Part shown: positions 624 to 38,841 of the stretch, in pieces
Layout: every line of letters starts with the position of its first letter
Numbering within the stretch: position 1 is the stretch's first letter
DNA from: Alphaproteobacteria bacterium
GTDB lineage: Bacteria; Pseudomonadota; Alphaproteobacteria; M2410
Reading direction: 5' to 3'
Length of the DNA stretch: 64,000 bases
Assembly: GCA_030614785.1 (NCBI GenBank)
Contig: JAUWTJ010000001.1
Span: 65,180-129,179 of the forward strand
Translations under genes and position numbers: made by a program
Notes under the pieces: model-generated
What the model saw: only the letters and a program-made list of their open reading frames with translations
Databases searched by the model: none
Told to the model about the DNA's origin: nothing

Positions 624-3554
624 TCACTTCTCTACCAAAAATTTTTCAATCCATCGCTGCGCGCCAGTGAAGGCAATCTCCAACTCAGCAAGGCTTGCCT
701 CTTCAAGAGTCCCTTCCGATAGTTGAATTTCTTTGGCAATCTTCTGGACGCGCCTGGCTCCTGAATTCCCGGCAATACCATGAAGGCCATGCGCAATTTC
801 CCTTGCCTTGCCATAGTCGCTGTCCACGACAGCCTCCCGCAAAGCGGACAAAATCAGGGTTGCATCCTCCGAAAAGAGGCACAAAAGACTTGCAACATTT
901 TCCGTGCCAAGCTCTGCCGATATCTTCTCCACATATGCCTCATCAACAACAGGAACCAGGTCAACCCCATCAGTATTGAAGTCCTCCTCCATCCTGCACT
1001 GTAATTCCGCACTCACATCCGTGTGTTCGGGGAATTGCATCATCGCCTCTTTCCTTTTCAAATTTAGAACCCGCCGAACCGTGGCCATCATCTTCGGCAT
1101 TTCAACTGGTTTCGTCAGCACTTCATCCATGCCCTCGGCAAGGTAGAGTTCGACCTGTTCCGGCAGGGCATTCGCTGTCAGGGCTACAATGGGAATGTCC
1201 TTGTAGTGCGTTTCCGAGGATCGAATTTGCAGCGTTGCGCCAACGCCATCCAGCTCCGGCATCTGAATATCCATCAGGATGAGATCAAACCTCTCACGCT
1301 TCAGAGCTTCCAGAGCTTCCTTGCCATTGTTCGCAACTGTACAGGTATGCCCATATTTCTTTAGGCAAGCGATCATATACATTTGATTTATGCGATGATC
1401 CTCAGCGACCAATATGTGCAGGGACTCAGGTTCATCCTCACAGCCAATATCAATAGTTGTCATATCAGCGTTGTACTTGCCAATTCCGCACTCCACATAG
1501 AACCAGAATGTGCTTCCGGTTTCACCATCACTGATCAGGCCAATCTCCCCTTCCATCAGCTGCACCAGTCCTCGCGAAATCGCCAGACCAAGGCCGGATC
1601 CGCCGTACTTTCTCGTAGTCGAACTATCCGCCTGGACAAACCTTTCGAACAAATCCCCCTGCACTTCAGGTGAAATTCCAATCCCTGTGTCCCTGACCAT
1701 GACATTCAAGCGACATGTCCCCTTGTCAACAACGTGATCAACTGTAACCAGAACATCCACGCTCCCCTCAGCGGTGAATTTCAGCGCATTGCCAACCAAA
1801 TTCAACAACACCTGTTTGATGCGTCCGGAGTCCGACTTCAAAAACTCGGGAACGCTTTCGTCCACTGTTGCTCCCAAGCTTATGGCCCTGGTCTTTGCTT
1901 CGGCGCCAAACAAACCAATGACCTGTTCAACAAGATGACGAACATTGAAGTCAATATTCTCAATTTCGATCTGGCTTGAACCCAACCTGACAAAGTCGAT
2001 GATATCATTGAGCACGGTCAACAAAGAGTGAGATGATTCGCAAATCACATCGACGTGAAGTCTCTGCTGATCACTTAACTCTGTATCCTGAAGCAATCGA
2101 GCCATGCCAAGAACTCCGTTCATTGGCGTCCGAATTTCATGAGACATATTTGCAAGAAACTCCGACTTGGCTTGTGAGGCTGATCGCGCTTCATCCATTG
2201 CCTTCTCCAGATCAAGCGCCTGCCTCTTGTATTCATCCGACTGTTGCTGAATTCGTCCTCGAGCGATAGACAGCTCTTCAAATTGAGTGCGGAGCGATTT
2301 TTGATTTTCCTCAAGAATTTGAAATGTCATTTTGCGAACACTAATGTCTGTCCCGATAGAGACGTATTGAAATATTTTTCCATCCCGATCAACAAACGGC
2401 ACTATGGTCGCGTCGTTCCAGAAAGTTGTTCCATCCTTGCGGAAGTTTCTGGTCTCCCCATGCCATGTTTCTCCCCGCGCAGTCTTCTCAATCAATTCCT
2501 TGCGTTTGGCTTTATCCGGAACGGTCGCACTTGAAATTTCCGAACCCTGATTGGAACCAAGGATCTCCTCCGAGCTATAGCCTGCGGTTTCGCAATATTG
2601 TCGATTCACGTACACCAATCTTTGGTTTGCATCGTGAATCAGGATCATATTGTGCTCGTCCAGAGCGCGTCTTTGCTGCTCCAGTTCATGCAGAACCGCT
2701 TCTGTCTCTCTTTTGGCCTTTTGCTGCGCCTTGCCGGTCTCTTCAAGTGCCTCGTAGGTCGAATAGATATTGGCCCCGAGACCAAGGAGAACACAAAGAT
2801 AACTTCCGAGCTTCAGCATGTGAGCCAAATCGAATTCAAGGTCGAAGAGCACCAAAGATTGAGGCATAAACAAAACCTGACCCAAGAGACTCAGAATGAG
2901 GCAATAGATAAGCCAATGATGCAAGGGCTCTTCGCGCCAGGCACCACGAAACGTCAGCCCAATGAAGGCCACTGCAAACAACACCCCGGAAATCAGCTCC
3001 GCTGGCCGGTGAAGCCACAAATCTGGAAAGTAGGCAGCTGGCAACGGAACGAACGCGAAGAACACAAAGCTTACAATCATAAACAGAACGACGATGATGT
3101 AGACCGTGTTTTCGTACTTGCAGACCTGTGCTGAAGTCTTCTCATCAGACAATTCCGTCCACACCAGCATCACAAGGACCACCGACAGATATAGTCTCGA
3201 TGAGATCCAGCTCCATGGAATAAGTGAAGGCATGTCCGACGGCAGAAATGTCACAAAATAGGGTGTCGTTACAAGGGCATGATAACCGTCAAGGCAAGCC
3301 GCTCCAAGGAAACCCGTTCCAAGCAAGAGATAGGTGCTGCTCTTCCTGGAATAATACCGTACCAGAGCAAGAGCTCCGACAACCGCCGCCAATATTGTCG
3401 CCGCGACCTCTTGAATCGTATGGAATTGAGGGCCGCTCGTCCAGCCGGAATTCCTGAAATACCAGTAGAAGGCACACAGAGCCATTACCAAAAAAAGGTA
3501 GCTCCACGCCCGCGCCGGTGTCACTCGCACATCGAAATTCTCAATCACCACCAT
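624..3554 (-). CDS. Membrane-bound hybrid sensor histidine kinase: N-terminal multi-pass membrane sensor region (~300 aa), PAS, coiled coil, HisKA, HATPase_c, REC, C-terminal HPt.
   Basis: Hydrophobic N-terminus; PAS (NMILIHDANQRLVYVNRQYCETAGY); H-box SEFLANMSHEIRTPMNGVLGM; N/G boxes LLNLVGNALKFT, RDTGIGI, GGSGLGLAISRGL; receiver HILVAEDHRINQ...DLILMDIQMPELDG; C-terminal HPt-like helix bundle (REIAHGLHGIAGNSGARR). Confidence 0.85.
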   Translation of the reverse strand: MVVIENFDVRVTPARAWSYLFLVMALCAFYWYFRNSGWTSGPQFHTIQEVAATILAAVVGALALVRYYSRKSSTYLLLGTGFLGAACLDGYHALVTTPYFVTFLPSDMPSLIPWSWISSRLYLSVVLVMLVWTELSDEKTSAQVCKYENTVYIIVVLFMIVSFVFFAFVPLPAAYFPDLWLHRPAELISGVLFAVAFIGLTFRGAWREEPLHHWLIYCLILSLLGQVLFMPQSLVLFDLEFDLAHMLKLGSYLCVLLGLGANIYSTYEALEETGKAQQKAKRETEAVLHELEQQRRALDEHNMILIHDANQRLVYVNRQYCETAGYSSEEILGSNQGSEISSATVPDKAKRKELIEKTARGETWHGETRNFRKDGTTFWNDATIVPFVDRDGKIFQYVSIGTDISVRKMTFQILEENQKSLRTQFEELSIARGRIQQQSDEYKRQALDLEKAMDEARSASQAKSEFLANMSHEIRTPMNGVLGMARLLQDTELSDQQRLHVDVICESSHSLLTVLNDIIDFVRLGSSQIEIENIDFNVRHLVEQVIGLFGAEAKTRAISLGATVDESVPEFLKSDSGRIKQVLLNLVGNALKFTAEGSVDVLVTVDHVVDKGTCRLNVMVRDTGIGISPEVQGDLFERFVQADSSTTRKYGGSGLGLAISRGLVQLMEGEIGLISDGETGSTFWFYVECGIGKYNADMTTIDIGCEDEPESLHILVAEDHRINQMYMIACLKKYGHTCTVANNGKEALEALKRERFDLILMDIQMPELDGVGATLQIRSSETHYKDIPIVALTANALPEQVELYLAEGMDEVLTKPVEMPKMMATVRRVLNLKRKEAMMQFPEHTDVSAELQCRMEEDFNTDGVDLVPVVDEAYVEKISAELGTENVASLLCLFSEDATLILSALREAVVDSDYGKAREIAHGLHGIAGNSGARRVQKIAKEIQLSEGTLEEASLAELEIAFTGAQRWIEKFLVEK

Positions 3555-4491
3555 TCTGTTCTCCGCGAGGAATGGTAGTCAATATTTCATCCTTCGATGT
3601 ATTCATACGGACGCAGACTCTGTTTCCGCACCCTTGATACTCGACAGCATCAAACGCTATTTCACGAGCGAAGAATATACCGCGTCCATGGTAAGGCGAC
3701 TTCTTCCTGCTCGTTCCATCGAGAAATGGAGTAAAATCAAACCCGACACCACCATCTTCAATCGTAATCTCGATGTGACTATCGAGACGTTTGAAATCAA
3801 CATGAGCAACCCGATCACTAAAGGGTTTCCATTTAAGTCTATAGTCAATCTCCTCAGCCCACCGCCTTTCCGTAAGAAGTTTGGACTTCAGATCCCAACC
3901 AATTCCCAGGTTTCCATGTTCAACGGCATTGACCAACAATTCGAGCAAACCCACCGCCGCGACATCCGGTCTCGGGCACGCCAGCGCCAACATGGTTGAG
4001 AGATTTCGCGCCTCATCCAGCGTTCGAAACCCGAAAGATCCGGACACAATATTGCCGATTGCCGACGTTCTTTGTTTCACCTCTGCGGCCAGTTCATTGA
4101 CCCTCGCGTGATAATTCAACACCGCACGGGTAACGGCACCAACCGAGTCCGCTGCTTCCGATGAACTCAAAATGACATCGCTCATTGCAGCCAGATCAGA
4201 AGCTCCATCCTTCTCGTCATCGATCCCAATGATCGCAGTTTTTGCATGATATTGCGTCAGCCACTGATCTATAGAGTCGAAGTGCTCTGACAGCCAGGCG
4301 TTGGAGATCACAAGAACAGACATCTTTGATGAGCGATCAGGTCCCCCGTCGCGAGACTCCTGATCATCCAGAAAAAAACTGGGCTCATACCCGGAAGATT
4401 CAAATCGATTGATAATCGCATTCGTGCTTTCACAATCAGCCAGAGCCAACATAACATTAACTTCTTGCGTATCACCCAACAAATTGTTCAC
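3541..4491 (-). CDS. RsbW/SpoIIAB-like GHKL serine-protein kinase (HATPase_c_2) with an N-terminal ~170-aa extension; partner-switch kinase.
   Basis: C-terminal N-box LLELLVNAVEHGN, G1 EDGGVGFD, G2 YHGRGIFFAREIA typical of anti-sigma-factor kinases; the N-terminal domain has no clear match (possibly a degenerate receiver). Its start overlaps the stop of the upstream PP2C gene by 4 nt. Confidence 0.6.
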   Translation of the reverse strand: MNNLLGDTQEVNVMLALADCESTNAIINRFESSGYEPSFFLDDQESRDGGPDRSSKMSVLVISNAWLSEHFDSIDQWLTQYHAKTAIIGIDDEKDGASDLAAMSDVILSSSEAADSVGAVTRAVLNYHARVNELAAEVKQRTSAIGNIVSGSFGFRTLDEARNLSTMLALACPRPDVAAVGLLELLVNAVEHGNLGIGWDLKSKLLTERRWAEEIDYRLKWKPFSDRVAHVDFKRLDSHIEITIEDGGVGFDFTPFLDGTSRKKSPYHGRGIFFAREIAFDAVEYQGCGNRVCVRMNTSKDEILTTIPRGEQNGGD

Positions 4492-5738
4492 TCCCCTTCG
4501 AGCCAGTCGACGGCCAACATCGACACATCATCCGGGATCGGGTCATGATATCTCGCACTCAACTCTTCTGATATACACGCAATAATCTCCGAGGCATCTT
4601 TCAATGCCGGACTTGCAACCAACTCCGTGACTTGCTCTGTCGACAGAACAGGTTTGTCTGGTTGTGGACACTCAATCAGTCCATCGCTATACAAAAATAA
4701 TCTGTCACCAGCGTGAAAGGGAACACTCAAGCATTCATATGTGGCCTGGGCAGTGATTCCCAGCGGCAACCCTGCGGAGGCAAGTTCTTCCGTGGTTCCG
4801 TCGCTGCGCACCAGGATCGGAGGTGGGCTCCCGGCTGCGGCCCAGGTCAATCGACCAGCCGCTGTATCAATGACCCCATGAAGCATGGTCGCAAAAATCC
4901 CGGTTTTCAAAACGTCAGAGAGATATTCATTGGCCCTTTTTAGGGCCTCTGGCGGGTTGCTCCAATCGAAGGCTCCGCTGTCGATAAATGTTTGAAGTCG
5001 AAATGTATTCAAAGACGATGCGGCCCCGCGGCCAGAAAAGTCAGTCATATGGAGACCGAAACTATGATCATTTATCCGGTGGGCACCCCACAAATCCCCC
5101 CCGAGACGATCCGACGCCTCGTAGCAAGCATCAATCGTCAAGCCTCTAACATCCGTAAGATTTTTAAGGTTTTCAACGTCAGGGAGCAAACACCTCTGCA
5201 TCTCCTGCATTGCAGTGACTTCCTGCTCCATACGCAGGTAATAGCTGCGAAGTTTTTTGATGAGAAAGTGACGTTCCAGATGGGTGCGAACCCGAGACAG
5301 AAATTCGGCAATCTCAATTGGTTTCGAGACGACATCAGAGGCCCCGACCTCAAAGACCCGCCCCCTGGACTCTCCGCCATCAAGAGAGGATTGAACAAGA
5401 ATTGGCGTATCAACAAATTGCGGTATCTTGCGGATTGCCTCGCAAAACCTGAAGCCATCCATCCCGGGCATCACAAGGTCCAGTACGATGAGGTCAGGAG
5501 ACCTTTTGCCAACGCTGTCCAAAGCTTCCTGGCCGTCGGATGCATAGGAAAGGTTCCTGTATCCAGCCTGCTCCAGCGCCATGCGAATAAGATCACGCAT
5601 GAAAAGCTGGTCATCGACAATTAGAATACGGGCATCGAGGAGATTTCCCGCCAGTTTCCCGGACTTGACGTCAGTGTCAGGCGTAGGCCAGATGTCGTCG
5701 CGAGACGGGCGGTTCGCTCGATATTTGAGTTCTGACAT
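4488..5738 (-). CDS. Response regulator with C-terminal PP2C/SpoIIE-family serine phosphatase domain (RsbU/HsbR-like).
   Basis: REC ILIVDDQLFMRDL...DLIVLDLVMPGMDG; PP2C region with GGDLWG, LHMTDFSGRG, DRLFLYSDGLIE motifs. Confidence 0.85.
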   Translation of the reverse strand: MSELKYRANRPSRDDIWPTPDTDVKSGKLAGNLLDARILIVDDQLFMRDLIRMALEQAGYRNLSYASDGQEALDSVGKRSPDLIVLDLVMPGMDGFRFCEAIRKIPQFVDTPILVQSSLDGGESRGRVFEVGASDVVSKPIEIAEFLSRVRTHLERHFLIKKLRSYYLRMEQEVTAMQEMQRCLLPDVENLKNLTDVRGLTIDACYEASDRLGGDLWGAHRINDHSFGLHMTDFSGRGAASSLNTFRLQTFIDSGAFDWSNPPEALKRANEYLSDVLKTGIFATMLHGVIDTAAGRLTWAAAGSPPPILVRSDGTTEELASAGLPLGITAQATYECLSVPFHAGDRLFLYSDGLIECPQPDKPVLSTEQVTELVASPALKDASEIIACISEELSARYHDPIPDDVSMLAVDWLEGE

Positions 5739-5758
5739 GGGTTGCCTCTCACCTATAC

Positions 5759-6064
5759 TCAGCGGGTGATGTTAATTATTTTGTCAAGAGCCGCCAGATC
5801 GATAATCCTTTCGACCTGACCAGTCGGCTTGTTCACACTAAACGTTTGTTTACGGAAGCCCGCCTGTTCGGCTGCTATCAACAACATGCCGATGCCTGCA
5901 CTGTCGATTGAGGACACACGCTGAATGTCCAGGACAACCACATTTTTTTCGGACTTGTTGATTTCTTCCAATACTTCGCGAAAACGTCCGTGGTCTGCGA
6001 ACGATAGATCACCGCTGAGATCCGCCCTGAATCCCGCATCGGAAACTGTTACTGTATAATCCAC
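5759..6064 (-). CDS. STAS-domain anti-sigma-factor antagonist (SpoIIAA/RsbV/HsbA-like).
   Basis: 101 aa; VLDIQRVSSIDSAGIGMLL motif with the conserved phosphorylatable Ser context; lies immediately upstream of the PP2C and kinase genes. Confidence 0.8.
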   Translation of the reverse strand: MDYTVTVSDAGFRADLSGDLSFADHGRFREVLEEINKSEKNVVVLDIQRVSSIDSAGIGMLLIAAEQAGFRKQTFSVNKPTGQVERIIDLAALDKIINITR

Positions 6065-6075
6065 TTTGGTCTCTC

Positions 6076-7293
6076 CTAGAATAGTTCGATTGAGTTCTCT
6101 TCGCCTACATCTTTATCCGCGGCAACATACTCGGCCACCGCAAGGCCCGGGGTCAGGGCCTTTTGAATAAATCTCTTTTTGACATCACCAAGCGTGTACT
6201 GCCCGATAATGGCCGACAACATTTCCGAGACATCGCCCTCTTCGATATCAATCCCATCAACCGAGCAAGCTTCAGTGTGAAATTCCTGGAAGGCATCAGA
6301 CAGAATGTTCAGTGTGTCCGTTACACTCTCCAATTGCTGTTGCGCCCGGTCCTGGAACTGCATGTCAACAACAAGCGAACCAACATCCCTGGAAATTCGA
6401 TCACTCATTTCACCCGAGCTGGATAGCGCCTCGGAAAGATTATTACTTTGACTGATCATGGCTGTGAGAACTTTCTGCAGCCGCTCCTTGGCAATAAGAT
6501 GCCCTGACATGTCCAGCGAGGCCAGCTTCAACAATCTCTTGTGTCCCTCTGTCACGCCATCATGTGTACGCCGCATCTGGGTCCGAATTTCATCTGCCAT
6601 GTCATCAATCTTCTTGCTGAGCGCGCGAATTTCCTCGGCAACAACAGAAAACCCTCTGCCCGCCTCGCCCGCTCTAGCCGCCTCGATCCGGGCATTTAGA
6701 GCCAGTATCGCTGTTTGCCTGTTGATTGCCTCAATTCCAGTGATCGTTTTTTCAACACCGCTAACTTCCTTCACGACGTCATCAAGAGAATAGACGATTT
6801 GAAGACCCTGCTTCGACATCTGCAGGACCGTGCCAATGATATCCTCCAGGACGCCCTCCATGACCTCGGGCACCTCGACCAATTTGAGAAATTCGCCATC
6901 AATTTCGATCTCCGCTGACAGTGCAATGACTTCCTGGATCTGCTCGCCCTGCCGGCCGGCATTTGTCGCAAGGTTTTGGAAGCGAGCCGCAATTTCGGAG
7001 ATCTTTTCCTCAACAAGCTGGCCTGTTCCTTTGACTTCGTCGATAACGGCAGACAGGGCACCTTGTTGTGCAGCTGACAGACCGACACATTTGGTAATGA
7101 GATCTATCAGGACAGCGGGACTCTCCGCTGCGGGCGCGTCGAACAGTTCTTCCTCGCCTGTCGCTATGTCCTGCTCAATATCCGGATCGATAGTCGACCC
7201 AATCCGGTCGAGGCCGGACAGCTCTTCTACAAGCGCATCCTCTGCTACATCCAACTCAGACGGCGCGAAGTATGATTTTAGGCGTCTAAACAC
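6076..7293 (-). CDS. Soluble (no TM) methyl-accepting chemotaxis protein.
   Basis: MCP signalling tip [32 protein letters not shown]; no hydrophobic N-terminus. Confidence 0.85.
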
Positions 7294-7379
7294 AATGACC
7301 TCATCGTTCCCAATTTTCCGCCCTTGCTACGCTCTGCCGGCGCAGTGGGCCAATTTTCCTATGTGCAGTCTCTATGCTT

Positions 7380-8492
7380 TCACGCACCAACTGCTCGTTT
7401 CGCATCTTCCTGACAGGCTCTGGCAATCTCCTGTGCCATATGAGAGAGGCTGTGCTGCTTCATCACGGCCCCGGTTTCAAACGCGGCTTTCGGCATGCCA
7501 TAAACCACACTGGACTCTTCATCCTGACCAAGAGTTACCCCCCCGGCCTCGCGAATTTCCAGAAGTCCCCGGGCACCGTCACGCCCCATGCCTGTCAAAA
7601 TCGCCGCGACAACACTTTTGCCACCCAGCCTGGCCACCGATTCAAACAGGACATCAACAGAAGGCTTGTGACCGGAGACCTTGTCGCCGTCCGAGATTCT
7701 ACAAACAAAATGCGCACCGGATCGATCGAGCTGCAGATGCCTTCCGCCGGGCGCTATGTAAACCTGGCCAGGTAGAATTCTCTGACCATCCGTCGCTTCG
7801 AAAACTTTCAGCTCCATCTTCTTGTCAAGACGATCCGCAAAGGCCCCGGTGAAACTTTCCGGCATGTGCTGCGTGATGAGGATCGGCGGCATGGTTGCCG
7901 GCAGGGCCGTAAGCACCGCCTGAATAGCCTCAACACCGCCGGTCGATGCACCGATGGCAACAATTTTCCCGGAGGAAAAATAGCCACTACTTCCAAGCTG
8001 GACTTTCCTCGTCGGAATCTTGTCCAGCCTTTTGACATTTGCCCGCGCCGCATGCTTGACTTTCTCGACGATTTCGGCGGCCTTATCCAGCATACCGTCC
8101 CTTTGATCGCCGGATGGCTTTGGAATGAAATCAACCGCGCCAAGCTCGAGAGCCTGCAGCGTCAGAGATGCGCCCTTTTGCGTGAGCGTCGAAATCATCA
8201 CAACAGGCATAGGTCGCAAGGACATGATCTTCTCAAGAAAAGTGATCCCGTCCATTTTGGGCATTTCAACGTCCAGCGTTATAACGTCGGGATTGAGTTC
8301 TCTGATCTTTCGCCGCGCGACGATCGGGTCGGGCGCATAGCCCACAACCTCGACTTCCGGGTCTGCCGACAAAATCGAATTCAACATTTGGCGCATGAGC
8401 GCTGAGTCATCCACAATCAGAACTTTTGTCTTGCTCACTGTCTCAATCCTCATTCTCGTCAAACAGTTCAATTGAGTCTTTATCCGACTCAT
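7380..8492 (-). CDS. cheB: Chemotaxis response regulator protein-glutamate methylesterase CheB (alternative start at 8453, MRIETVSKTKVLIVDD).
   Basis: N-terminal REC (VLIVDDSALMRQML...VITLDVEMPKMDG) plus C-terminal methylesterase (VAIGASTGG, ILITQHMP). Confidence 0.9.
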   Translation of the reverse strand: MSRIKTQLNCLTRMRIETVSKTKVLIVDDSALMRQMLNSILSADPEVEVVGYAPDPIVARRKIRELNPDVITLDVEMPKMDGITFLEKIMSLRPMPVVMISTLTQKGASLTLQALELGAVDFIPKPSGDQRDGMLDKAAEIVEKVKHAARANVKRLDKIPTRKVQLGSSGYFSSGKIVAIGASTGGVEAIQAVLTALPATMPPILITQHMPESFTGAFADRLDKKMELKVFEATDGQRILPGQVYIAPGGRHLQLDRSGAHFVCRISDGDKVSGHKPSVDVLFESVARLGGKSVVAAILTGMGRDGARGLLEIREAGGVTLGQDEESSVVYGMPKAAFETGAVMKQHSLSHMAQEIARACQEDAKRAVGA

Positions 8493-9102
8493 TTCCGGTC
8501 AGCGAACTACGATATCGAGCCTCTGCTTTCGCCACTCTGTCCTGCCGCTCATCAGACCTCTCAACGAACTTTCGTTGGACTTTTCCGCTATCAGCATAAA
8601 AATGTATTCGCCGAGCATACCGGCCGCCAAGGTCATGCGATGCAACCTCAATGCCTTCCTTACTCATATAGTCCAGAGAAAATCGCGCATTGTTGTCCCC
8701 TATCATCTGGCTGGATTCTATAACGTTGCCGCCGCCGAAAAGTTTGACAATCAGATCCTCTTTTCTTGACCCTGTGGAAAAGAAAGCATTGAACAAGGAC
8801 TCCATGGCAAAATGGCCAAACCGCAGCGAAAACCCGGCCCCGCCCCAGTCGCAATCCTCATCACCAGGCAGCATAAAATGATTCATTCCGCAAAATCCTG
8901 TTCTTGCATCCCGCACACAGGTCGACACACAAGATCCAAGCGTCGTAGTCAGCATTTCATTACGCTCTCGAGTAATATACTGCGTACCAGGAAGAATCTT
9001 GATAACCCATCGGTCATACCTCTTGTCGAAGTATCGCGACAGCATCTCCGACGGCGTCTGACCGCTCTTCCTTTTTGATGAAGTAGACAGCACATTGCTC
9101 AC
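8443..9102 (-). CDS. cheD: Chemoreceptor glutamine deamidase CheD.
   Basis: LGSCVSTCVRD...GMNHFMLP motif characteristic of CheD; sits between cheR and cheB. Confidence 0.85.
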   Translation of the reverse strand: MSNVLSTSSKRKSGQTPSEMLSRYFDKRYDRWVIKILPGTQYITRERNEMLTTTLGSCVSTCVRDARTGFCGMNHFMLPGDEDCDWGGAGFSLRFGHFAMESLFNAFFSTGSRKEDLIVKLFGGGNVIESSQMIGDNNARFSLDYMSKEGIEVASHDLGGRYARRIHFYADSGKVQRKFVERSDERQDRVAKAEARYRSSLTGNESDKDSIELFDENED

Positions 9103-9105
9103 ACC

Positions 9106-9975
9106 TTACTCCATCTTTTCGTAAACTGTTCGACCGACCATCTTGTAATTATCCAGCACACCCAGGAGACTTTCAGCATGCCCGGTATAAAGGTACCCCC
9201 CGACTTTCAGCTGGCGGTCAAATCTCTTGACCAATTTTTCCTTGGTTTCATCGTCGAAATAGATCATCACATTTCGGCACATGATCGCATCGAAGATGCC
9301 ATCCATCGGCCAGGGGGACAGGAGGTTCAATTGCCTGAAGGTGACGAGGCGCCGCACATCATCACCCATTTTCATCTTATTACCGGAAACGGAAACAGCC
9401 TTGCCAGACAGACGGTTAAGCAATTTTGGTGGCAGATCAGAATATTGACTGTGTGAATACTCGGCATTGCGCGCCTTTGTCAGAATATTGCTGTCGAGGT
9501 CTGTTGCAAGAATTCGAACATCGCATTTTTCCAGAGCCGCCAAATAAGCCATCAGTGTCAGGGCTATAGAATAGGGTTCCTCACCTGATGAGCAGGCTGC
9601 CGACCAAATTCGAAACTTCGATCTACCGGCTCCTTTCGCCTCAGCATCCAACTGGGGAAGAAAGACATCCTTCATGTGAATAAAATGATGCGCCTCTCTG
9701 AAAAATTTGGTGTGGTTAGTCGTCAGGGCATTGATAAAATCTTGAAATTCCTCGCTGCTGTCATCTTCTAACAACGCACAATAGTCGCGAAAAGACTCCA
9801 GCTGCAAATGACGCAGACGTTTGGACAGACGTCCATAGACCAGGTTTCTTTTTTCGTCCGAGAGGGCAATCCCCGCCTTGTCATGAACAAGGTCGGCGAT
9901 AACGCGGAAGTCTCGATCTGTAAATCGATACTCCCGCGCTTCCTCGTTTTTGGCCTGTAAGGTCGATAGAACCAA
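9106..9975 (-). CDS. cheR: Chemotaxis protein methyltransferase CheR.
   Basis: CheR N-terminal helical domain (FRVIADLVHDKAGIAL), FFREAHHF, IWSAACSSGEEPYSIA SAM-binding motif. Confidence 0.9.
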   Translation of the reverse strand: MVLSTLQAKNEEAREYRFTDRDFRVIADLVHDKAGIALSDEKRNLVYGRLSKRLRHLQLESFRDYCALLEDDSSEEFQDFINALTTNHTKFFREAHHFIHMKDVFLPQLDAEAKGAGRSKFRIWSAACSSGEEPYSIALTLMAYLAALEKCDVRILATDLDSNILTKARNAEYSHSQYSDLPPKLLNRLSGKAVSVSGNKMKMGDDVRRLVTFRQLNLLSPWPMDGIFDAIMCRNVMIYFDDETKEKLVKRFDRQLKVGGYLYTGHAESLLGVLDNYKMVGRTVYEKME

Positions 9976-10019
9976 CTGACGATCTCCTGCTTTCAGTGTC
10001 TTCAGATCCGGGGCGAGTC

Positions 10020-12569
10020 CTAGAACTCACTCCAGTCTTCATCTTCCTTGATAGCGGTTGCCACGGCCGCCTGCATTTGACGGACCGGAACGGGCCCACG
10101 TACAGGTAATGGCACTTTGCGTACTGCGCTGGCATGAGCTGCGCTCTCGCCGCCGAGCTGGAAAAAGCCCATTCGCGAGTGCATCGCCTCGGACTGATCC
10201 CGCAGCGTCTTGGCAGCGGCGGCATTTTCTTCAACCAGAGCAGAGTTCTGCTGCGTGACTTCATCCATGCCGCTAACGGCCTTGTTGATTTCAGCAACAC
10301 CGGTGGCCTGTTCCTCACTGGCCGCCGCGATTTCAGACACAATGTCTGTCACCTTTCGGATCGAGTCGACGATTTCAGTCAGAGCACCGCCAGCCTCGCC
10401 CACCAGAGACACGCCCTTTGTGACCTGGCCGGAACTTTCATCGATAAGCTCCTTGATGTCCTTGGCAGCCTGTGTCGAGCGTTGTGCAAGCGTTCGAACT
10501 TCGGAAGCGACAACCGCAAATCCGCGCCCGGCATCCCCGGCCCTGGCCGCTTCAACTGAAGCATTAAGAGCAAGGAGATTTGTCTGGAATGCAATCTCGT
10601 CAATGACGCCGATGATGTCGGAAATCTTGCCGGACGACTCTTCTATGCTGGCCATGGCAGAAACAGCATTTTCCACAATGCCACCGCCCTTGGTGGCAAC
10701 GTCGCGAGCCGTGGTAGAAAGTTGGTTGGCTTGCTGCGCATTTTCGGCATTTTGTTTGACCGTTCCGGCCATTTGCTCCATGGAGGCTGCAGTTTCCTGC
10801 AAGGCCGAAGCCTGCTGTTCCGTCCGCGATGACAAATCAGTCGTTCCACTGGAGATTTCTTCAGACGCATTGGAAACTTCGTTTGCCGCAGATTGCAACT
10901 CACCGATGATCTCCGCCAGACGTTCCGACGTATTATTGGTGTTCTGCTTGATATCATCAAACAGACCCTGGTAGTCTTCATTGATTCTATCGGTCAGATC
11001 ACCTTTGGCCAGATTCTCCAGTACGTTTCCGAGGTTCTTCATGATGTCTTCAACATTGGCGGACTGAGTATTGAGACTTTCCGCGAGATTGCGCATAAAG
11101 CCTTCCTTGCCTTCAAGCGGAATACGGATCGATAGATCACCCGCAACGGCTTTTGTGACCAGATTTTCGATTTCACCTTCAACCAGTTTTTCCATCGTCT
11201 CGTTTTTCCACTCGACGACCGTACCGACTTTGACGCCGTCAGCACCAAGAACCGGATTGACGGTCAGGTGGAAATTCATCCCGCCGGCCAGAACATCGGC
11301 CTCGTAGGTTGACGTGAGACCTTCAAGCAAACCACGTTGGTGAGCCGGATTTTTGTGGAAGATATCGATACATGTACCGATCAGGTTATTGGCATCAAGA
11401 GCAGGAATATCCCTTCTCAAATCGGCTTCCGCACCACGCATCATGCTGGTCATTGTGTCATTCATGTAAACGATGTTGAGGTCGGGATCGGCCAGCATGA
11501 CATTGGTACTGCACTTGTCCAGCGCAGACCGAATTCTGGAATTCTCGTCGGCCTGGCTCTTGGCTTCACGTTGCCGTGCGTTTTCAGCCGTCACATCCGC
11601 CCACTCAACCACAGTACCTATGCGTTCACCGGCATCATCGTTAATCGGTGAGACAACAAGATCAAAATCAAGACCCCCGATTTCCAGAGAGGTTTCTGTA
11701 GTGCTGCTCAAAGCATCAAGAATGCGCCTTTGATGAGCCGGGTTCTTGTGGAAGATATCGATATTGCTACCTTCCAGCTTCCGCGCATCAAAGTTCGGCA
11801 GATCCTCTCGCAACGCCACCTCATTGCCGCGCATCATTTCGCTCATCGTGTCGTTGAGATAGACCAGATTGTAGTCGGCATCAGCCACCATGACATTGGT
11901 CCGACAGCTATCAAGGGCAGAGCGCAGTCGGGCATTCACCATCGACAATTGCCTGTCAGCCTCTTCAGCGCGCAATCTGTCGGTCATGTCATCCCATTCA
12001 ACGACCGTTCCGGTACGAACCTTTTTCTCATCGAAAATCGGATTGGCGATCAAGGAAAACGTGCGGCCACCGGCTGTTATTTGCGTTCTGTAGGTGCTGG
12101 TCAAACCGTGAACCATGCTCCGCTGGTGAGCGGGGTTCTTGTGAAAAGCATCAATATTAGTACCGATGAGCTGATCGGCGTTAAAGCCGGACAGCTCCGA
12201 TTTCAAATCCGCTTCTGCGTTCTTCATCATCGCCAGCATGGTCTGATTCATATAGATGATGTTGAAATCCGCATCCGCGATCATCACATTCTGATCACAG
12301 GTCTGCAGGGCAGTCGCAATGCGTGAATCGCTTTCCCCTGCCGTACTTTGTACAAACCGTGTATAGAAGATCAAAGCCAGTCCGGCGAGACCGACAATCC
12401 CTCCAGCGTAGGCCCACAGGGGCCCAAAGGCCTGATACAATCCAAATGAACCAAATTGCACCACTGCGATGGCTCCGACCATGACGGCCAGACGGATCCA
12501 CCGTTCGTTAAAATCAACATTAGACATCTTCTTCACCCTTTCTTCGCGCAACCGCGAAATATGAATCAA
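10020..12569 (-). CDS. Methyl-accepting chemotaxis protein with 2 N-terminal TM helices, three tandem PAS domains, HAMP and MCP signalling domain. TTG at 12569 overlaps the cheW stop; alternative ATG at 12527.
   Basis: Three ~132-aa PAS repeats (NVMIADADFNIIYMN.../NVMVADADYNLVYLN.../NVMLADPDLNIVYMN...); signalling tip [31 protein letters not shown]. Confidence 0.9.
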   Translation of the reverse strand: MIHISRLREERVKKMSNVDFNERWIRLAVMVGAIAVVQFGSFGLYQAFGPLWAYAGGIVGLAGLALIFYTRFVQSTAGESDSRIATALQTCDQNVMIADADFNIIYMNQTMLAMMKNAEADLKSELSGFNADQLIGTNIDAFHKNPAHQRSMVHGLTSTYRTQITAGGRTFSLIANPIFDEKKVRTGTVVEWDDMTDRLRAEEADRQLSMVNARLRSALDSCRTNVMVADADYNLVYLNDTMSEMMRGNEVALREDLPNFDARKLEGSNIDIFHKNPAHQRRILDALSSTTETSLEIGGLDFDLVVSPINDDAGERIGTVVEWADVTAENARQREAKSQADENSRIRSALDKCSTNVMLADPDLNIVYMNDTMTSMMRGAEADLRRDIPALDANNLIGTCIDIFHKNPAHQRGLLEGLTSTYEADVLAGGMNFHLTVNPVLGADGVKVGTVVEWKNETMEKLVEGEIENLVTKAVAGDLSIRIPLEGKEGFMRNLAESLNTQSANVEDIMKNLGNVLENLAKGDLTDRINEDYQGLFDDIKQNTNNTSERLAEIIGELQSAANEVSNASEEISSGTTDLSSRTEQQASALQETAASMEQMAGTVKQNAENAQQANQLSTTARDVATKGGGIVENAVSAMASIEESSGKISDIIGVIDEIAFQTNLLALNASVEAARAGDAGRGFAVVASEVRTLAQRSTQAAKDIKELIDESSGQVTKGVSLVGEAGGALTEIVDSIRKVTDIVSEIAAASEEQATGVAEINKAVSGMDEVTQQNSALVEENAAAAKTLRDQSEAMHSRMGFFQLGGESAAHASAVRKVPLPVRGPVPVRQMQAAVATAIKEDEDWSEF
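11196..12317 (-). repeat. Three tandem ~396-bp in-frame repeats encoding the three PAS domains of the MCP.
   Basis: Protein-level repeats of ~132 aa, 50-60% identical (…FHKNPAHQR…GTVVEW…). Confidence 0.7.
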
Positions 12570-13117
12570 CGGACTTGATCGTCCTGATTTTCGGCGATTG
12601 CACCGAACTCCTCACCTTGTAATAAACTTGATAACGAGAGGATGGCGACCATCTCCTCATCCAGGGCTATCAATCCCTTCAAATATCGCGCATCGGGCGA
12701 TTGCCCGGCCTCGGGAACATCCTTGACCTGGCTCCGCTCCGTACTAAGAATATCTGACACAGCATCGACCAGCAGACCTACGATCTGCTCACCTACATTG
12801 ACAATAATCACGACGTGCATCGGCGTCGCGTCTGTTTTCTCACCCCAAAATCTGTTTCTCAGATCAATAATCGGAACAACGATCCCGCGCAGGTTCAAGA
12901 CCCCGCGCACGTATTTCGGTTGATTGGGCAGTCCTGTAATTTCCGTCCAACCCTTGATTTCACGGCATCGCATAATATCCACGGCGTATTGACCATCGCC
13001 AACGCGAAAACTGATATACTGACTTTCGTCGACCGCAGATTGGAGATGGTTCATTGCCAGACCCGTGGGGGCCAGGCCCGTATCCCCTGATGTATCAATT
13101 GCCACTGCTTCCATCAC
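12566..13117 (-). CDS. cheW: Chemotaxis coupling protein CheW.
   Basis: CheW-like domain (YAVDIMRCREIKGWTEITGLPNQPKYVRGVLNLRGIVVPIIDLR). Confidence 0.9.
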   Translation of the reverse strand: MMEAVAIDTSGDTGLAPTGLAMNHLQSAVDESQYISFRVGDGQYAVDIMRCREIKGWTEITGLPNQPKYVRGVLNLRGIVVPIIDLRNRFWGEKTDATPMHVVIIVNVGEQIVGLLVDAVSDILSTERSQVKDVPEAGQSPDARYLKGLIALDEEMVAILSLSSLLQGEEFGAIAENQDDQVR

Positions 13118-13142
13118 ATGTTTCCTTCACTCAAACGGCAGA

Positions 13143-15305
13143 TCAAACTGCCTCTGCTTCAATTTTGACAACATCTGCTTTAGACGTATCTGTCTTCATG
13201 ATGTCTGCACCGGGATCCTTGCTGCCTCCGGAGCTGTGGAGAGTCACGCCTTCAAAACTGTCAACATCGACAATTAGCGCGACCATTCCGTCGCCCAGAA
13301 TCGTGGCGCCGGAAACCCCCGGGATGATCTTGTAGTTCTCTTCCATACTTTTGATGACGACCTGTTGCTGGCCGAGCAATTCATCGACGACAAGGCCGAT
13401 TTTCTTGCCTGACGCCAATTCCACAAGGACCACCAAAGCCTTGGCCGGATCGGTTTCCGCGCCCTTGACGTCAAACACCTGCGACAGGTGCACAAGCCGC
13501 AAGACCTCGCCACGGATATGCATAACTTCAAGGCCGTCCGTCAGCTTTCGAATTGAACCTGGTTCAGGACGCACCGTTTCGATAATCGTCGTCAGCGGCA
13601 GGATATATTTCTGGGTTCCAACTGAAATCAACATGCCGTCAAGAATGGCCAGTGTGAGGGGTAGCGTCAGAGTGAAGGTTGTCCCGACACCCATTTCCGA
13701 CTCGACCATTGTACGCCCGCCCAGAGCAAGTATGTTCCGGCGCACCACATCCATGCCGACGCCGCGCCCGGAGACCTCGCTGACCTCTTCGGCTGTTGAG
13801 AACCCCGGATGAAAAATAAGTTCATCAACTTCTTCAGGCGTCAGGTTCTGGTCTTTTGCAACAACACCGCGCTCTATTGCTTTTTCAAGGACCCTGTCGC
13901 GGTCAATGCCGCGTCCGTCGTCTGACACCTGAATCAGAATTCGTCCTGAGCGATGCTCTGCGGAGAGTTTGATCGTCCCTGTTTCCGGTTTTCCTGCGGC
14001 AAGGCGTTCTGCCGGAGGTTCAATCCCGTGATCCAGAGAGTTCCGGATCATGTGCGTTAACGGATCGCCCAGTTCTTCAATGACGGTTTTGTCAACTTCG
14101 GTCGTTTCACCGCAGGTTTCGAGGTCAATTTTCTTTCCGAGCTTGGCGGACAGATCTCTGACGACCCGAGGCATGCGCGAAAACACCGATTTAACCGGCT
14201 GCATCCGAATAGCCATAACGCCTTCCTGCAGGTGCCGCGTCCTGAGTGCCAGATCTTCAAGACCCTGCAGTTCAACAGCCGCGCGCGGACCAAGAGCCAG
14301 GGAAATATCCTGAACGACCATGGACTGAGCAATCACCATCTCGCTAACCTGGTTGACCAATCGGTCAACCCGGTCGAGATCAACTCGAATTGAGGTAATT
14401 TGAGAGCCGGCTTTCTGTTTGCCGGACTTTGAAGCAGAGGTGGTCTTCTGCGAGACCGCTTCGGTTTCCGCCACCGCAGATGGCATCAACAGCTCTGGCT
14501 CTTCCACACTGGCTGCGGTTTCCGCATCTGTCTCGCGGGCTACACCCGCTTCCTCAGTAATCTCAAGATCACAATCATCAATGACAAACTCGAAGACCTC
14601 GTCAACATCTGCTCGCGAGCACGAACTTTCAAGCGTCAACAGCCAGTGAAAATAGGCATCCTCAACTTCCATCGTTCTGAAATCGGGAAGCTTCGTGCTA
14701 TCAAGCACGATGTCCAGCTGCCCCAAAGATCGCAGCTCGCGAATAATCAGGAGGGGTTCATTGGCATGCCTGAATAATTCCGCCTTGGGACGGAAGGCGA
14801 TCGAGTAGATCGTATCGGCGGAAGCAGTATCGTCAGAATTTCCGTCAGTGTCATCGAGCAGGTCTTCAGTCGCCGCACCGCTTGAGCTTTCACCATCACC
14901 GGTTCCTGACAACAGGTCTTCGAGAAGCGCTCTGACGTCTTCGTCTGAACCACCTTCAAATTCAACATCCTCTTCTGCCGCAGCAACAAGATCTGCCAAC
15001 ACATCACCGCCACGGATCATGATGTCGATAACATTCTGATTAATGTCTAGTTTGTCCTGGCGCATTTGATCCAGCACCGATTCAAATATGTGCGTATAGG
15101 CGACAAGACGGTCAAACTTGAAGGCGCCCGCGCCGGCCTTCATAGAGTGGACCGCTCGAAAAATGGCGTTGAGGTCTTCAAAATCGATCGCATCGACAGT
15201 TAGTGTGGTGACCTTATCTTCCAACACCTCCAGGAGCTCGCGGCACTCCTCGAAATACGTCTTCTTGAATATCGCATAGGGATCTTCATCAGGAAGATTT
15301 GACAT
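13143..15305 (-). CDS. cheA: Chemotaxis histidine kinase CheA. The ORF track extends to GTG 15329, but ATG 15305 has a strong AGGAGGAG SD.
   Basis: P1/HPt (AIFRAVHSMKAGAGAF), dimerisation, HATPase_c (GRGVGMDVV, DDGRGID) and C-terminal CheW-like P5 domain. Confidence 0.9.
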   Translation of the reverse strand: MSNLPDEDPYAIFKKTYFEECRELLEVLEDKVTTLTVDAIDFEDLNAIFRAVHSMKAGAGAFKFDRLVAYTHIFESVLDQMRQDKLDINQNVIDIMIRGGDVLADLVAAAEEDVEFEGGSDEDVRALLEDLLSGTGDGESSSGAATEDLLDDTDGNSDDTASADTIYSIAFRPKAELFRHANEPLLIIRELRSLGQLDIVLDSTKLPDFRTMEVEDAYFHWLLTLESSCSRADVDEVFEFVIDDCDLEITEEAGVARETDAETAASVEEPELLMPSAVAETEAVSQKTTSASKSGKQKAGSQITSIRVDLDRVDRLVNQVSEMVIAQSMVVQDISLALGPRAAVELQGLEDLALRTRHLQEGVMAIRMQPVKSVFSRMPRVVRDLSAKLGKKIDLETCGETTEVDKTVIEELGDPLTHMIRNSLDHGIEPPAERLAAGKPETGTIKLSAEHRSGRILIQVSDDGRGIDRDRVLEKAIERGVVAKDQNLTPEEVDELIFHPGFSTAEEVSEVSGRGVGMDVVRRNILALGGRTMVESEMGVGTTFTLTLPLTLAILDGMLISVGTQKYILPLTTIIETVRPEPGSIRKLTDGLEVMHIRGEVLRLVHLSQVFDVKGAETDPAKALVVLVELASGKKIGLVVDELLGQQQVVIKSMEENYKIIPGVSGATILGDGMVALIVDVDSFEGVTLHSSGGSKDPGADIMKTDTSKADVVKIEAEAV

Positions 15306-15319
15306 TGTGGAAACTCCTC

Positions 15320-15685
15320 CTATGGACACACTTTGTTGACGACTTGCAGAAGTTTTTCCGGATCGAAGGGCTTCACTATCCAGCCTGTTGCACCGGCAGC
15401 TCTGCCTTGCTGGCGTTTCTCGTCATCCGTTTCCGTGGTAAGCATGAGGATTGGCGTCGCCTTGAAGTCCGCTTGCCCGCGCAGCTCCTTGACGAGAGTA
15501 ATGCCATCCATAATCGGCATATTGATATCTGTTATAACAACATCAATGCGCTTGCCGGAAACCTTGGACAGAGCATCCTGTCCGTCTACGGCCTCCAGGA
15601 CGTCAAATCCGGCGCCTTTTAGCGTAAAGGCAACCATGTCCCGCATGGTCTTGGAATCATCGACAGTAAGAATCAACTTGCTCAT
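15320..15685 (-). CDS. cheY: Chemotaxis response regulator CheY.
   Basis: 121-aa stand-alone REC (ILTVDDSKTMRDM...VVITDINMPIMDG...KPF). Confidence 0.9.
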   Translation of the reverse strand: MSKLILTVDDSKTMRDMVAFTLKGAGFDVLEAVDGQDALSKVSGKRIDVVITDINMPIMDGITLVKELRGQADFKATPILMLTTETDDEKRQQGRAAGATGWIVKPFDPEKLLQVVNKVCP

Positions 15686-16032
15686 TTATCAGCACTCCAC
15701 AAATCCAGTTCCGCAGCCAGGCCAAGATCAGAAAATGATCGGGCCATAACCTCTGACGGGTCTTTAAACACCACATCCACATTTTCCCCGGCGAAACTTT
15801 GGCGAGCCGCCACAAGTAGCTGGATGATCGAGGTATCCATCCGTTCCACCCCTGAGCCATCAACAGTGAGGCGATCCACATCACATGCAGCACGCAGAAT
15901 CTCTTCTTTGACCCGCGTTGCGCTCGAAAGATCACAGTATGAAGGCAACTCAAAAAACCCTTTGGGGTCAGTCGCCTTCGATGATGCGTTTACGACTTTT
16001 TCTGTCGCTTCATTCTTTGCAACTTTAGCCAC
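15682..16032 (-). CDS. STAS-domain protein, first gene of the che operon (like the small orf that precedes cheY-cheA in alphaproteobacterial che operons).
   Basis: 116 aa; STAS-like LTVDGSGVERMDTSIIQLLVAA; GTG start; 4-nt overlap with cheY. Confidence 0.6.
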   Translation of the reverse strand: MAKVAKNEATEKVVNASSKATDPKGFFELPSYCDLSSATRVKEEILRAACDVDRLTVDGSGVERMDTSIIQLLVAARQSFAGENVDVVFKDPSEVMARSFSDLGLAAELDLWSADK

Positions 16033-16418: not shown

Positions 16419-16934
16419 CTACCCCCTGGCCTGAAATTCATCCAGTCGCGCAAAGCCCTGAAACAGGAGCCCCTTGAAGGCTTCGTCCATTTCTGTTTGC
16501 CCGGCAGCTTCAATCATGACGCCTGCAAGGATCATATAGGTGGCCGTCCACGCTTCTTTAACGGCTGGAGTAAAGGCGGCACCAAGCCCCTGCTCCAATG
16601 TCCACAAAAGCGCAGTAGCGACGGTTTGATAGTGAGACTCCTTAACCCCGAATTTCGCATGGCTGGCCCCAAGAGCCTGTACCGTCGGTATAATCTTGTC
16701 CAGATTTCTCAGGCTGGACACCGAAACGCCCAATGTGGCCATTAACTTGCGACCCTGCTCAACCATATCGCCCTTAAAGAGGGGGCGCAGGGAGGGATCA
16801 AGCTCGAACAATCGACTGTAGAACAGGTCAGCGGCCTGCTCCTTGATTTTTGCCACCGCCTGAAACGAGGTTTCCACAAGATCGATTTGTTTCGGAGTCA
16901 AACTCATTTTATTGATCTTCCATAAACGGGACAC
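16419..16934 (-). CDS. Single-domain sensor-type globin (protoglobin/GCS-globin-like), probable start MSLTPKQ at 16907.
   Basis: Globin-sensor signature ([42 protein letters not shown]); ~45% identity to the two globins at 37.9-39.3 kb. Confidence 0.75.
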   Translation of the reverse strand: MSRLWKINKMSLTPKQIDLVETSFQAVAKIKEQAADLFYSRLFELDPSLRPLFKGDMVEQGRKLMATLGVSVSSLRNLDKIIPTVQALGASHAKFGVKESHYQTVATALLWTLEQGLGAAFTPAVKEAWTATYMILAGVMIEAAGQTEMDEAFKGLLFQGFARLDEFQARG

Positions 16935-35704: not shown

Positions 35705-35820
35705 AGATCTATGGCATATTGCCGCGGAGCAACCTCCGGCATACTCGGTTTTCGCTAAAGACTGCGCCCTTGCAGAGATTGAGTTTCATTCTGATTTCCA
35801 CCGTCACAAGGATTAACCCT

Positions 35821-37856: not shown

Positions 37857-38621
37857 CTATCCGACCAGGCGAACGATCTCTGCAATATTTGAGTGCAGAT
37901 TGGTAACGACCTGTCTGATTTCATTTGTTGCATCGGTTGTCTGACCTGACAGCGCCTTGACTTCATGGGCAACCACAGCAAAGCCGCGCCCCGCATCACC
38001 GGCCCGCGCGGCCTCAATCGTCGCGTTGAGAGCAAGAAGTTTAGTCTGGCTTGCGACCAGGTCAATCTTCTCGGCGACACTCCCGACCCGCTTAATCTCA
38101 GCCTGCAGCTGTTCGATTTGGCGGCGAATAATCTCAAAATCCTGAGTAGATTCTTCTACATTCTTACTCGTACTCAACTCCATTACAGCCAGCTCCTCTT
38201 GTTGTTCATTTCTATATTCGTTTGCAGCTTCAATCATTACCGTGGCCAACAAGGTATAGGCCGCAAGCCACGCATCTTTGACCTCATCCGTAAAGGCATC
38301 CCCCAGCCCCTGTTCCAGGGTCCAGATCAGCGCCTGGCCAACAACATCATAGTGCCAGTCCTCGACGCCGTACCCGACATGGGAAGCCCCAAGCTGTTGA
38401 ACAGTCGGCACGATTGTCTCAAGGTCAGTAAGGCCCGAAACTACAGTTGCCAATGCCGCCATCAGCTTTTTGCCCTGCTCTGTCACATCTTCAGGAAACA
38501 TCGCGCGGGTCGAGGGTTCGATCTCAAACAGCCGACCATAAAACAGATCTGCTGCTGCTTCCTTGATTGGTACGACAAGCTTGAACGTATCCTGAACAAG
38601 AGCAATTTGATCGGCTTCCAT
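37857..38621 (-). CDS. Mini globin-coupled sensor: N-terminal sensor globin fused to only the hairpin-tip segment (~110 aa) of an MCP signalling domain.
   Basis: Globin ([17 protein letters not shown]...[14 protein letters not shown]) followed by [33 protein letters not shown] and no HAMP or methylation helices. Confidence 0.8.
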
Positions 38622-38770: not shown

Positions 38771-38802
38771 AAAAAAGCCGTCGGCACCATGGCACCGACG
38801 GC
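38771..38802 (-). terminator. Rho-independent terminator for the downstream globin gene (minus strand).
   Basis: Hairpin GCCGTCGG-loop-CCGACGGC followed on the minus strand by a TTTTTT run. Confidence 0.5.
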
Positions 38803-38841
38803 TGATATCTCGGGAAAAACCCGGGATCATCAGGATAACGT

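Follow-up and report, generated by a model that had tools for sequence, protein, structure and literature searches.

A flavohaemoglobin-type globin fused to a minimal chemoreceptor tip in an alphaproteobacterial genome

The stretch of DNA analysed here (the window) comprises 64,000 nucleotides, namely positions 65,180-129,179 of contig JAUWTJ010000001.1 from Alphaproteobacteria bacterium GCA_030614785.1; coordinates are those of the window unless another locus is named. It encodes a natural fusion of a haemoglobin-like domain, a floppy linker and a kinase-gripping chemoreceptor tip of about 95 residues. This architecture (globin, flexible linker, minimal hairpin of a methyl-accepting chemotaxis protein, MCP) is called Gb-tip below, and the tip-only MCP module is called the tip. 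Globin-coupled chemoreceptors as such are known. New are the different globin lineage and the reduction of the receptor to its protein-interaction hairpin.

The open reading frame (ORF) of the Gb-tip gene has an ATG start and a clean stop, and encodes 254 amino acids (aa). Two domains were found significant in the Pfam scan. Globin (PF00042) matches residues 27-129 with an E-value of 1.7e-16 and 61 bits, the cutoff being 22, and MCPsignal (PF00015) matches residues 150-251 with an E-value of 1.1e-25 and 90.8 bits, the cutoff being 34.6. Of the 172 positions of the MCPsignal profile, only 6-107 are covered. The initial annotation, which had been made from the letters of the window alone, described this ORF as a globin fused to the tip of an MCP signalling domain, and the Pfam matches bear this out; the tip sequence of 27 residues that it quoted occupies residues 195-221. 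Pfam detected no HAMP domain in the protein. The methylation consensus is also absent from it, while a full-length MCP of the window, used as the positive control, shows four sites. The lack of both HAMP domain and methylation helices had thus been read correctly.

Residues 136-240 of the protein align without gaps to residues 318-422 of full-length Tsr of E. coli (chain 6s1k_E; offset +182), and the alignments to the tips of Tm1143 and Tm14 are gap-free as well. In the AlphaFold2 (AF2) model a helix extends over residues 161-253. Based on the gap-free Tsr alignment and on this helix span, the module is assigned to Tsr 343-436, which is exactly the part distal to the glycine hinge. In Tsr the hinge is made up of G340/G341/G439, and the methylation sites are 297, 304, 311, 493 and 502 (PMC6606802). 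The described MCP classes (24H-64H and the 'uncategorised' McpA) share a homologous tip and the Pfam family with Gb-tip, but contain 12-32 paired heptads (PMC6628036), whereas the arms of the Gb-tip module, with approximately 47 and 41 residues, make about 6-7. In a heptad class test the module fits none of the described classes. Hydrophobic residues occupy 92% of the a/d heptad positions in the N-arm and 83% in the C-arm. Confidence in the AF2 model is lowest in the linker, where the predicted local distance difference test score (pLDDT) falls below 50 (residues 153-156) and is 51-70 in the residues around these. Across 50 relatives the segment between globin and hairpin has a length of 31 to 65 residues, with Ala, Glu and Pro in abundance.

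In two array models, twelve residues of Tsr come within 4 Å of CheA P5 or CheW (PMC13098124 Table 1). Seven of these are identical in Gb-tip (Q374, L378, L380, N381, E385, A387 and R388), three are conservatively replaced (I377L, V384I and R404K), and two differ (F373S and A383T). With the exception of the F373 equivalent, the contact positions are invariant or nearly so across the 50 relatives. Engagement of CheW/CheA or of receptor arrays via the tip, as proposed in the initial annotation, is consistent at the sequence level with this strict conservation. A sequence search of the PDB matched residues 168-238 to the engineered fragments 4jpb_B and 3ur1_C. Tip fragments of Tm14 with a length of 85-90 residues were crystallised together with CheA P4P5 and CheW (3UR1, 4JPB). 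Fused dyads of 71-residue tips of Tar or Tm14 combine with CheA and CheW to give stable ternary complexes, and they activate the CheA of E. coli or are inhibitory to the Thermotoga kinase (bioRxiv 10.1101/2020.03.27.011866). The natural module of about 95 residues is longer than either kind of engineered fragment. These fragments of 71-90 residues (3UR1, 4JPB, fused dyads) speak against the view that a tip by itself is unable to build a normal four-helix-bundle hairpin, and given this precedent the non-canonical geometry suggested for the contact with CheW/CheA is not needed.

The short hairpin is not the result of a disrupted gene. A search past the stop codon in any frame (tblastn with the full-length C-arms of the two other MCPs of the window) found no MCP-like coding sequence, the best E-value being 0.7. 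An unnoticed frameshift, for which the initial annotation had allowed, was therefore not found, and the next gene, encoding a DUF169 protein, starts 84 bp downstream of the stop. Homologs were collected as the best 120 matches out of 5.8 billion proteins; none of these 120 carries a full-length or long MCP domain, so that the second reservation of the initial annotation, that all homologs might be full-length MCPs, does not hold either. In 69 of 74 relatives with the tip at the C-terminus, the C-arm extends 45-46 residues beyond the RAG motif. The gene was also compared with a 97%-identical locus of an uncultured alphaproteobacterial metagenome-assembled genome (MAG), L001. The two genes differ by 60 synonymous and seven nonsynonymous codons, with no nonsynonymous difference in residues 178-254. 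Because synonymous differences outnumber nonsynonymous ones in this way (60 against seven), the Gb-tip gene is under purifying selection. The window and L001 share the gene order P450, GFA, globin, Gb-tip, DUF169, DUF2855, and a 62%-identical relative from another independent assembly, L068, retains the order GFA, Gb-tip, DUF169, DUF2855. That the gene is a product of truncation or misassembly, or that a full-length globin-MCP is decaying into a pseudogene here, is suggested by the incomplete match to the MCPsignal profile (102 of 172 positions), but was rejected in view of the stop position kept across the family, the lack of a continuation past the stop, the substitution pattern, the synteny in L001 and L068, and an equally short hairpin in relatives in which the domain order is permuted (tip-Gb).

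The globin of Gb-tip belongs to the M/F family (the flavohaemoglobin-like lineage), with Hell's Gate globin I as its nearest structural match. No match to the Protoglobin family was found in the protein by Pfam (E <= 0.01). The NCBIfam model of the flavohaemoglobin Hmp aligned only at its positions 3-147 of 399, and scored 83.5 bits against a cutoff of 432 bits because the reductase is missing in Gb-tip; a FAD/NAD(P)H reductase domain was likewise not detected by Pfam. The closest PDB sequence matches of the globin are HGbRL (3wfw, E-value 2e-27) and Hell's Gate globin I (3s1i/3ubc, E-value 2e-26), followed by Vitreoscilla haemoglobin and Hmp. The globin is modelled by AF2 with a pLDDT of about 90. 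A Foldseek comparison with Hell's Gate globin I (3S1I) gave a template modelling score of 0.95 and a root-mean-square deviation of 1.1 Å; neuroglobins, Vitreoscilla haemoglobin and flavohaemoglobins came next. HemAT is found neither among the top 50 Foldseek matches in the PDB nor among the listed PDB sequence matches of the globin. A sensor globin of the HemAT type (S family, protoglobin) was ruled out by these Pfam, NCBIfam, PDB and Foldseek matches. Of the initial annotation as a mini HemAT-type sensor, the short globin-MCP fusion has stood, and the label 'sensor globin' has not, the globin being of the M/F family. A proximal His and the fusion to a transmitter domain in one ORF are features that Gb-tip has in common with HemAT-type sensors. 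The pocket residues are TyrB10 (Y28), PheCD1 (F42), GlnE7 (Q49) and the proximal HisF8 (H81). In the 50 relatives F42, Q49 and H81 are invariant and Y28 is at least 90% conserved; Y28, Q49 and H81 align with the equivalent residues of Hell's Gate globin I. Judged from these residues, the globin very likely binds haem.

The initial annotation suggested a search for the same truncated architecture in other genomes, and it is widespread. About 110 related protein clusters carry a tip-only module with nearly fixed boundaries. By motif counting, 61 of the best 120 matches are Gb-tip proteins, 20 are tip-Gb and 14 are Gb-Gb-tip. Rarer arrangements are tip-Gb-Gb (4), tip-tip-Gb (4) and tip-tip-Gb-Gb (1); the set also includes 6 Gb-Gb proteins and 6 single globins. 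A second search was made with the tip alone as query against 1.84 billion cluster representatives. It added the Gb-tip-tip proteins P0126 and P0129, and proteins of about 200 aa which consist of two tips exactly 100 residues apart and have no sensor domain (P0122, P0128 and P0145). Apparent stand-alone single tips of about 100 aa may be represented by P0176, P0178 and P0182. Three further candidates for short stand-alone tips (P0121, P0123 and P0149) were rejected as N-terminally truncated gene calls of Gb-tip proteins. Tandem tips are spaced 100-102 residues apart, and the ratio of globins to tips in the family ranges from 0.5 to 2. The model of one tandem-tip protein, P0056, contains four helices of about 48 residues with a pLDDT of 75-88. 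Automatic annotation names the proteins of this family either 'methyl-accepting chemotaxis protein' or 'hemoglobin-like flavoprotein'.

Two further groups were seen among the matches. Multi-tip matches of about 870 aa (P0134, P0150-P0155 and others) were rejected as kin of the mini-module, as each has two complete signalling domains, separated by about 440 residues. They form a large set of receptors with a double signalling domain, ranked high only by the summed score of two tips. P0224 (353 aa) is a transmembrane-HAMP protein with an N-arm of about 150 residues and a C-arm of 45 residues, which ends in '...IARMVG' as in the Gb-tip family. From its sequence, this asymmetric hairpin looks like a recombinant of an ordinary MCP and the mini-module.

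We lean, with moderate confidence, towards the interpretation of Gb-tip as a soluble haem-based input for O2, NO or CO which docks on CheA/CheW and is coupled to them by association of the tethered globins. Gb-tip would then be a soluble haem protein composed of two independent modules on a flexible tether. The globin with its TyrB10/GlnE7/HisF8 pocket should bind O2, NO or CO. Two hairpins, each the smallest portion of a chemoreceptor able to act by itself, would pair, by homology, into a short four-helix bundle, and the bundle would dock on CheW and CheA P5 via the canonical tip surface, thereby placing at least one haem domain at the kinase. In the docked form the proteins might build small soluble signalling particles, or might be mixed into arrays of full-length receptors. 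The signal would more likely be passed by ligand-dependent association or crowding of the globins, altering the stability of the bundle or trimer, than by a rigid helical relay, because the linker is disordered and variable, the domain order is permuted, the globin-to-tip ratio varies and the methylation helices are absent. Such an input would operate without methylation-based adaptation. The sequences show the architecture and its conservation, purifying selection, the boundaries of the module and the retained contact residues; haem binding, dimerisation, binding to CheA/CheW and control of the kinase by the ligand are the steps that we infer.

An obvious target in this genome would be an F7/Che1-like pathway for O2 or stress, encoded in the same window 22 kb from the Gb-tip gene. 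This cluster is complete, has a partner-switching output, and encodes a STAS protein, CheY, CheA, CheW, an Aer2-like MCP (triple PAS and HAMP, ending in DWSEF), CheR, CheD and CheB, followed by a 405-aa McpA-like unclassifiable MCP, a response regulator-PP2C protein (RR-PP2C), an RsbW-like kinase (HATPase_c_2) and a MASE3-PAS hybrid histidine kinase with Hpt. Its layout matches that of the ancestral F7 and Shewanella Che1 systems, which have the haem-PAS O2 sensor Aer2 and a CrsR/CrsA partner switch at their core (PMC9855816, PMC7184735). With CheA, CheW and a haem-PAS Aer2-like system all in the window, the docking on CheA/CheW gains some support; the link between Gb-tip and this pathway is plausible but circumstantial, being drawn from their presence in one genome, 22 kb apart.

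Several observations weigh against this interpretation. Within 10 kb of the Gb-tip gene no che genes were found in the window or in seven related loci, and a conserved che neighbourhood was rejected on this basis. Orphan MCP genes are common. RR-PP2C, STAS and hybrid histidine kinase genes stand next to a Gb-tip gene in only one locus, L065. According to DSSP, residues 161-253 of the AF2 model form one continuous helix. Tight allostery is disfavoured by the disorder of the linker, by the permutation of the domains and by the range of globin-to-tip ratios, all of which fit a pure tether equally well. In the M/F family, a TyrB10/GlnE7 pocket usually marks an enzyme or an O2 binder, not a sensor. 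Finally, almost all members of the family are MAG or metagenome proteins, to which neither host taxonomy nor motility is attached.

A wider proposal is more tentative, and we put it forward as a possibility rather than an expectation. The hairpin distal to the hinge could be a portable, autonomously folding module for docking on CheA/CheW, i.e., a natural 'minimal chemoreceptor' which was shuffled to positions before and after globins, in tandem as a single-chain four-helix bundle, or alone. The proteins would then form a soluble class below 24H, the accepted lower size limit, and would control kinase complexes or be part of them with no need of transmembrane signalling, a HAMP relay or methylation; coupling would be by association of tethered domains and not by helix mechanics.

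Alternatively, the tip could be an address which only concentrates globins at CheA/CheW or at arrays, with no signal passing through the hairpin. The role of the globin could then be local scavenging of NO, buffering of O2 near haem-PAS receptors such as Aer2, or action in trans on a component of the array. A disordered linker of 31-65 residues with biased composition would suit this explanation, as would a freely permuted domain order with 0.5 to 2 globins per tip, a TyrB10/GlnE7 pocket typical of globins of the NO-dioxygenase or high-affinity type, and the free-standing paralogous globins in the same neighbourhood. We nevertheless consider it unlikely. Turnover by a NO dioxygenase needs a reductase, yet none is fused or adjacent; there is no precedent for enzymes brought to arrays by a receptor tip; and the existence of tip-tip proteins that carry no cargo (P0122) suggests that the tip has an activity of its own.

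A decoy, or a modulator which competes with full-length receptors for CheW/CheA or caps trimers, and thereby down-tunes or uncouples the arrays whenever it is expressed, is a weaker candidate; in such a protein the globin would control the stability or availability of the mini-hairpin and not its conformation. The contact residues are retained and the adaptation region is absent, as a competitor would have it. Engineered tip foldons can keep CheA in the kinase-off state (bioRxiv 10.1101/2020.03.27.011866), and heterologous cytoplasmic receptors inhibit chemotaxis of E. coli when expressed (PMC9855816). The same foldons, however, activate the CheA of E. coli, so that tip fragments are not inherently inhibitory, and neither a conserved haem pocket nor tandem globins nor strict arm lengths would be expected of a competitor. 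Even less can be said for a generic coiled coil which merely oligomerises the globin and is unrelated to chemosensory proteins: the missing che neighbourhood would fit, but about 30 invariant residues coincide with the contact surface for CheA, CheW and trimer formation, whereas identity in the globin drops to about 50%, which makes this explanation very improbable.

Among the known systems, the HemAT/MCP-type globin-coupled sensors (HemAT of B. subtilis and H. salinarum, Atu1027 of A. tumefaciens) resemble Gb-tip in the N-terminal haem globin, the C-terminal MCP hairpin, the solubility and the presumed gas input to CheA. HemAT, however, has a globin of the S family and a full MCP cytoplasmic domain with adaptation helices, whereas Gb-tip has an M/F-family globin, a disordered linker and a hairpin cut at the hinge. 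The engineered tip fragments (3UR1, 4JPB, Tar/Tm14 foldon dyads) are, like Gb-tip, tip-only hairpins with a protein-interaction region of about 36 residues, but they were made in the laboratory, and a phage trimerisation motif keeps them together; the Gb-tip module is natural, selected, about 95 residues long and carries the putative haem domains. The fused engineered dyad has its counterpart in the natural tip-tip-Gb and tip-tip proteins. With Hell's Gate globin I of Methylacidiphilum infernorum (3S1I/3UBC) the globin of Gb-tip shares 37% identity and the TyrB10/GlnE7/HisF8 pocket, but Hell's Gate globin I is free-standing, without a signalling module. In HGbRL (3WFW/3WFX) a globin of the same subfamily is likewise joined to a regulatory module instead of a reductase; the partner is Roadblock/LC7 in HGbRL and an MCP tip in Gb-tip. 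Residues 3-147 of Hmp align with the Gb-tip globin, while the FAD/NAD reductase of Hmp has no counterpart.

In reviews, coupling to MCPs is assigned to the S family only, and flavohaemoglobin is named as the sole chimeric form of the F family (PMC7475203, PMC1457004); a review of aerotaxis from July 2026 treats only HemAT-type receptors (PMC13401364). No description of a fusion of an M/F-family globin with an MCP, or of tip-only receptors, was found in the searchable full-text literature, to which subscription journals do not belong. Gb-tip breaks the textbook rule that only S-family globins are coupled to chemotaxis output, as a globin of the flavohaemoglobin lineage appears to have been recruited to signalling. 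If the proposed docking is true, the proteins are the smallest natural chemoreceptors, about half as long as the shortest class recognised, and a natural version of the engineered tip fragments which are used to study the switching of CheA. Soluble, homogeneous and ligand-controllable core signalling particles of this kind could then serve structural work on kinase control. The permuted and flexibly tethered forms pose the question of how a signal could reach the kinase without rigid relay and adaptation; alternatively, the tip may be a pure address. The features of the window referred to in the text are summarised in Table 1.

Table 1. Location of the Gb-tip gene, its parts and other features in the 64,000-nucleotide window
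Feature	Position	Strand	Basis
F7/Che1-like chemosensory cluster, candidate partner pathway	624..16032	(-)	Pfam scans, published layouts
Third globin paralog of 162 aa, sharing 58% identity with the globin of Gb-tip	16419..16907	(-)	Pfam, BLASTP E-value 7e-55, start codon taken from the sequence
DUF2855 gene, convergent	35440-36918	(+)	Near Gb-tip in window, L001 and L068
DUF169 gene	36915-37772	(-)	Adjoins Gb-tip in window, L001 and L068
Gb-tip gene, complete, 254 aa	37857..38621	(-)	ORF list, Pfam Globin and MCPsignal, codon comparison with L001
C-arm helix, residues 214-254 (Tsr 396-436), runs to the C-terminus just before hinge position G439	37860..37982	(-)	Arm lengths, heptads
Protein-interaction region, 36 residues, 192-227 (Tsr 374-409), with equivalents of CheA-P5/CheW and trimer contact residues	37941..38048	(-)	Contact table, matches to 4jpb_B/3ur1_C
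Hairpin U-turn, residues 208-213 (GDAGRG)	37983..38000	(-)	D209 = Tsr E391 by the +182 offset
N-arm helix of MCP hairpin, residues 161-207 (Tsr 343-389)	38001..38141	(-)	6s1k_E alignment, AF2, heptads
Acidic low-complexity linker, residues 136-160, predicted to be partly disordered	38142..38216	(-)	pLDDT, length variation in relatives
Globin domain, residues 1-135, M/F family, 3-on-3	38217..38621	(-)	Pfam, Hmp match, PDB sequence matches, AF2, Foldseek
Terminator-like intrinsic hairpin, 12-bp stem, 8 G-C pairs, T-run	38776..38803	(-)	Promoter/terminator scan
Tandem paralog, free-standing globin of 145 aa	38842..39279	(-)	ORF list, Pfam, 85% identity to the Gb-tip globin domain

The genes for DUF169 and DUF2855 are the only conserved neighbours of Gb-tip that were seen. 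Upstream, the terminator-like hairpin separates the gene of the tandem free-standing globin from the Gb-tip gene. This globin is present in L001 and absent from L068, and because of this absence the duplication is lineage-specific. Paired globins are 68-93% alike within a lineage, as opposed to 57-72% to their positional counterparts elsewhere. An orthologous fission of a Gb-Gb-tip gene into free globin and Gb-tip was rejected, since the globins of one lineage are closer to each other than to their positional counterparts; the sequences point to recurrent duplication or gene conversion of the globins, and not to one ancient fission. The third globin of the window also belongs to the M/F family. 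It has a C-terminal extension of about 25 residues, and its gene shares the strand of the che cluster, upstream of which it lies by about 390 bp. Three orthologs, among them that of Aestuariispira insulae, do not keep this adjacency, and a globin at the head of the che operon was therefore rejected as a conserved arrangement.

In L065 (7110-10768) a CHASE-containing hybrid histidine kinase with Hpt is encoded directly upstream of the Gb-tip gene, and in L071 (6396-10474) a CHASE hybrid histidine kinase with Hpt directly upstream of a plain orthologous globin. Judged from these sequences, the pairing of globin and hybrid kinase may be conserved, with the tip added in one lineage.

Two other genes of the window were noted. 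The gene at 33980-35704 (-) encodes a protein of 574 aa in which an unassigned N-terminal part of about 390 residues precedes an AAA_33/Zeta-toxin-like kinase domain at the C-terminus; a homolog is present in L068. The gene at 54942-58007 (+) encodes a protein of 1021 aa with a PNP_UDP_1 nucleoside phosphorylase-like domain and a STAND NTPase domain (nSTAND_NTPase4), a combination that recalls anti-phage defence NTPases.

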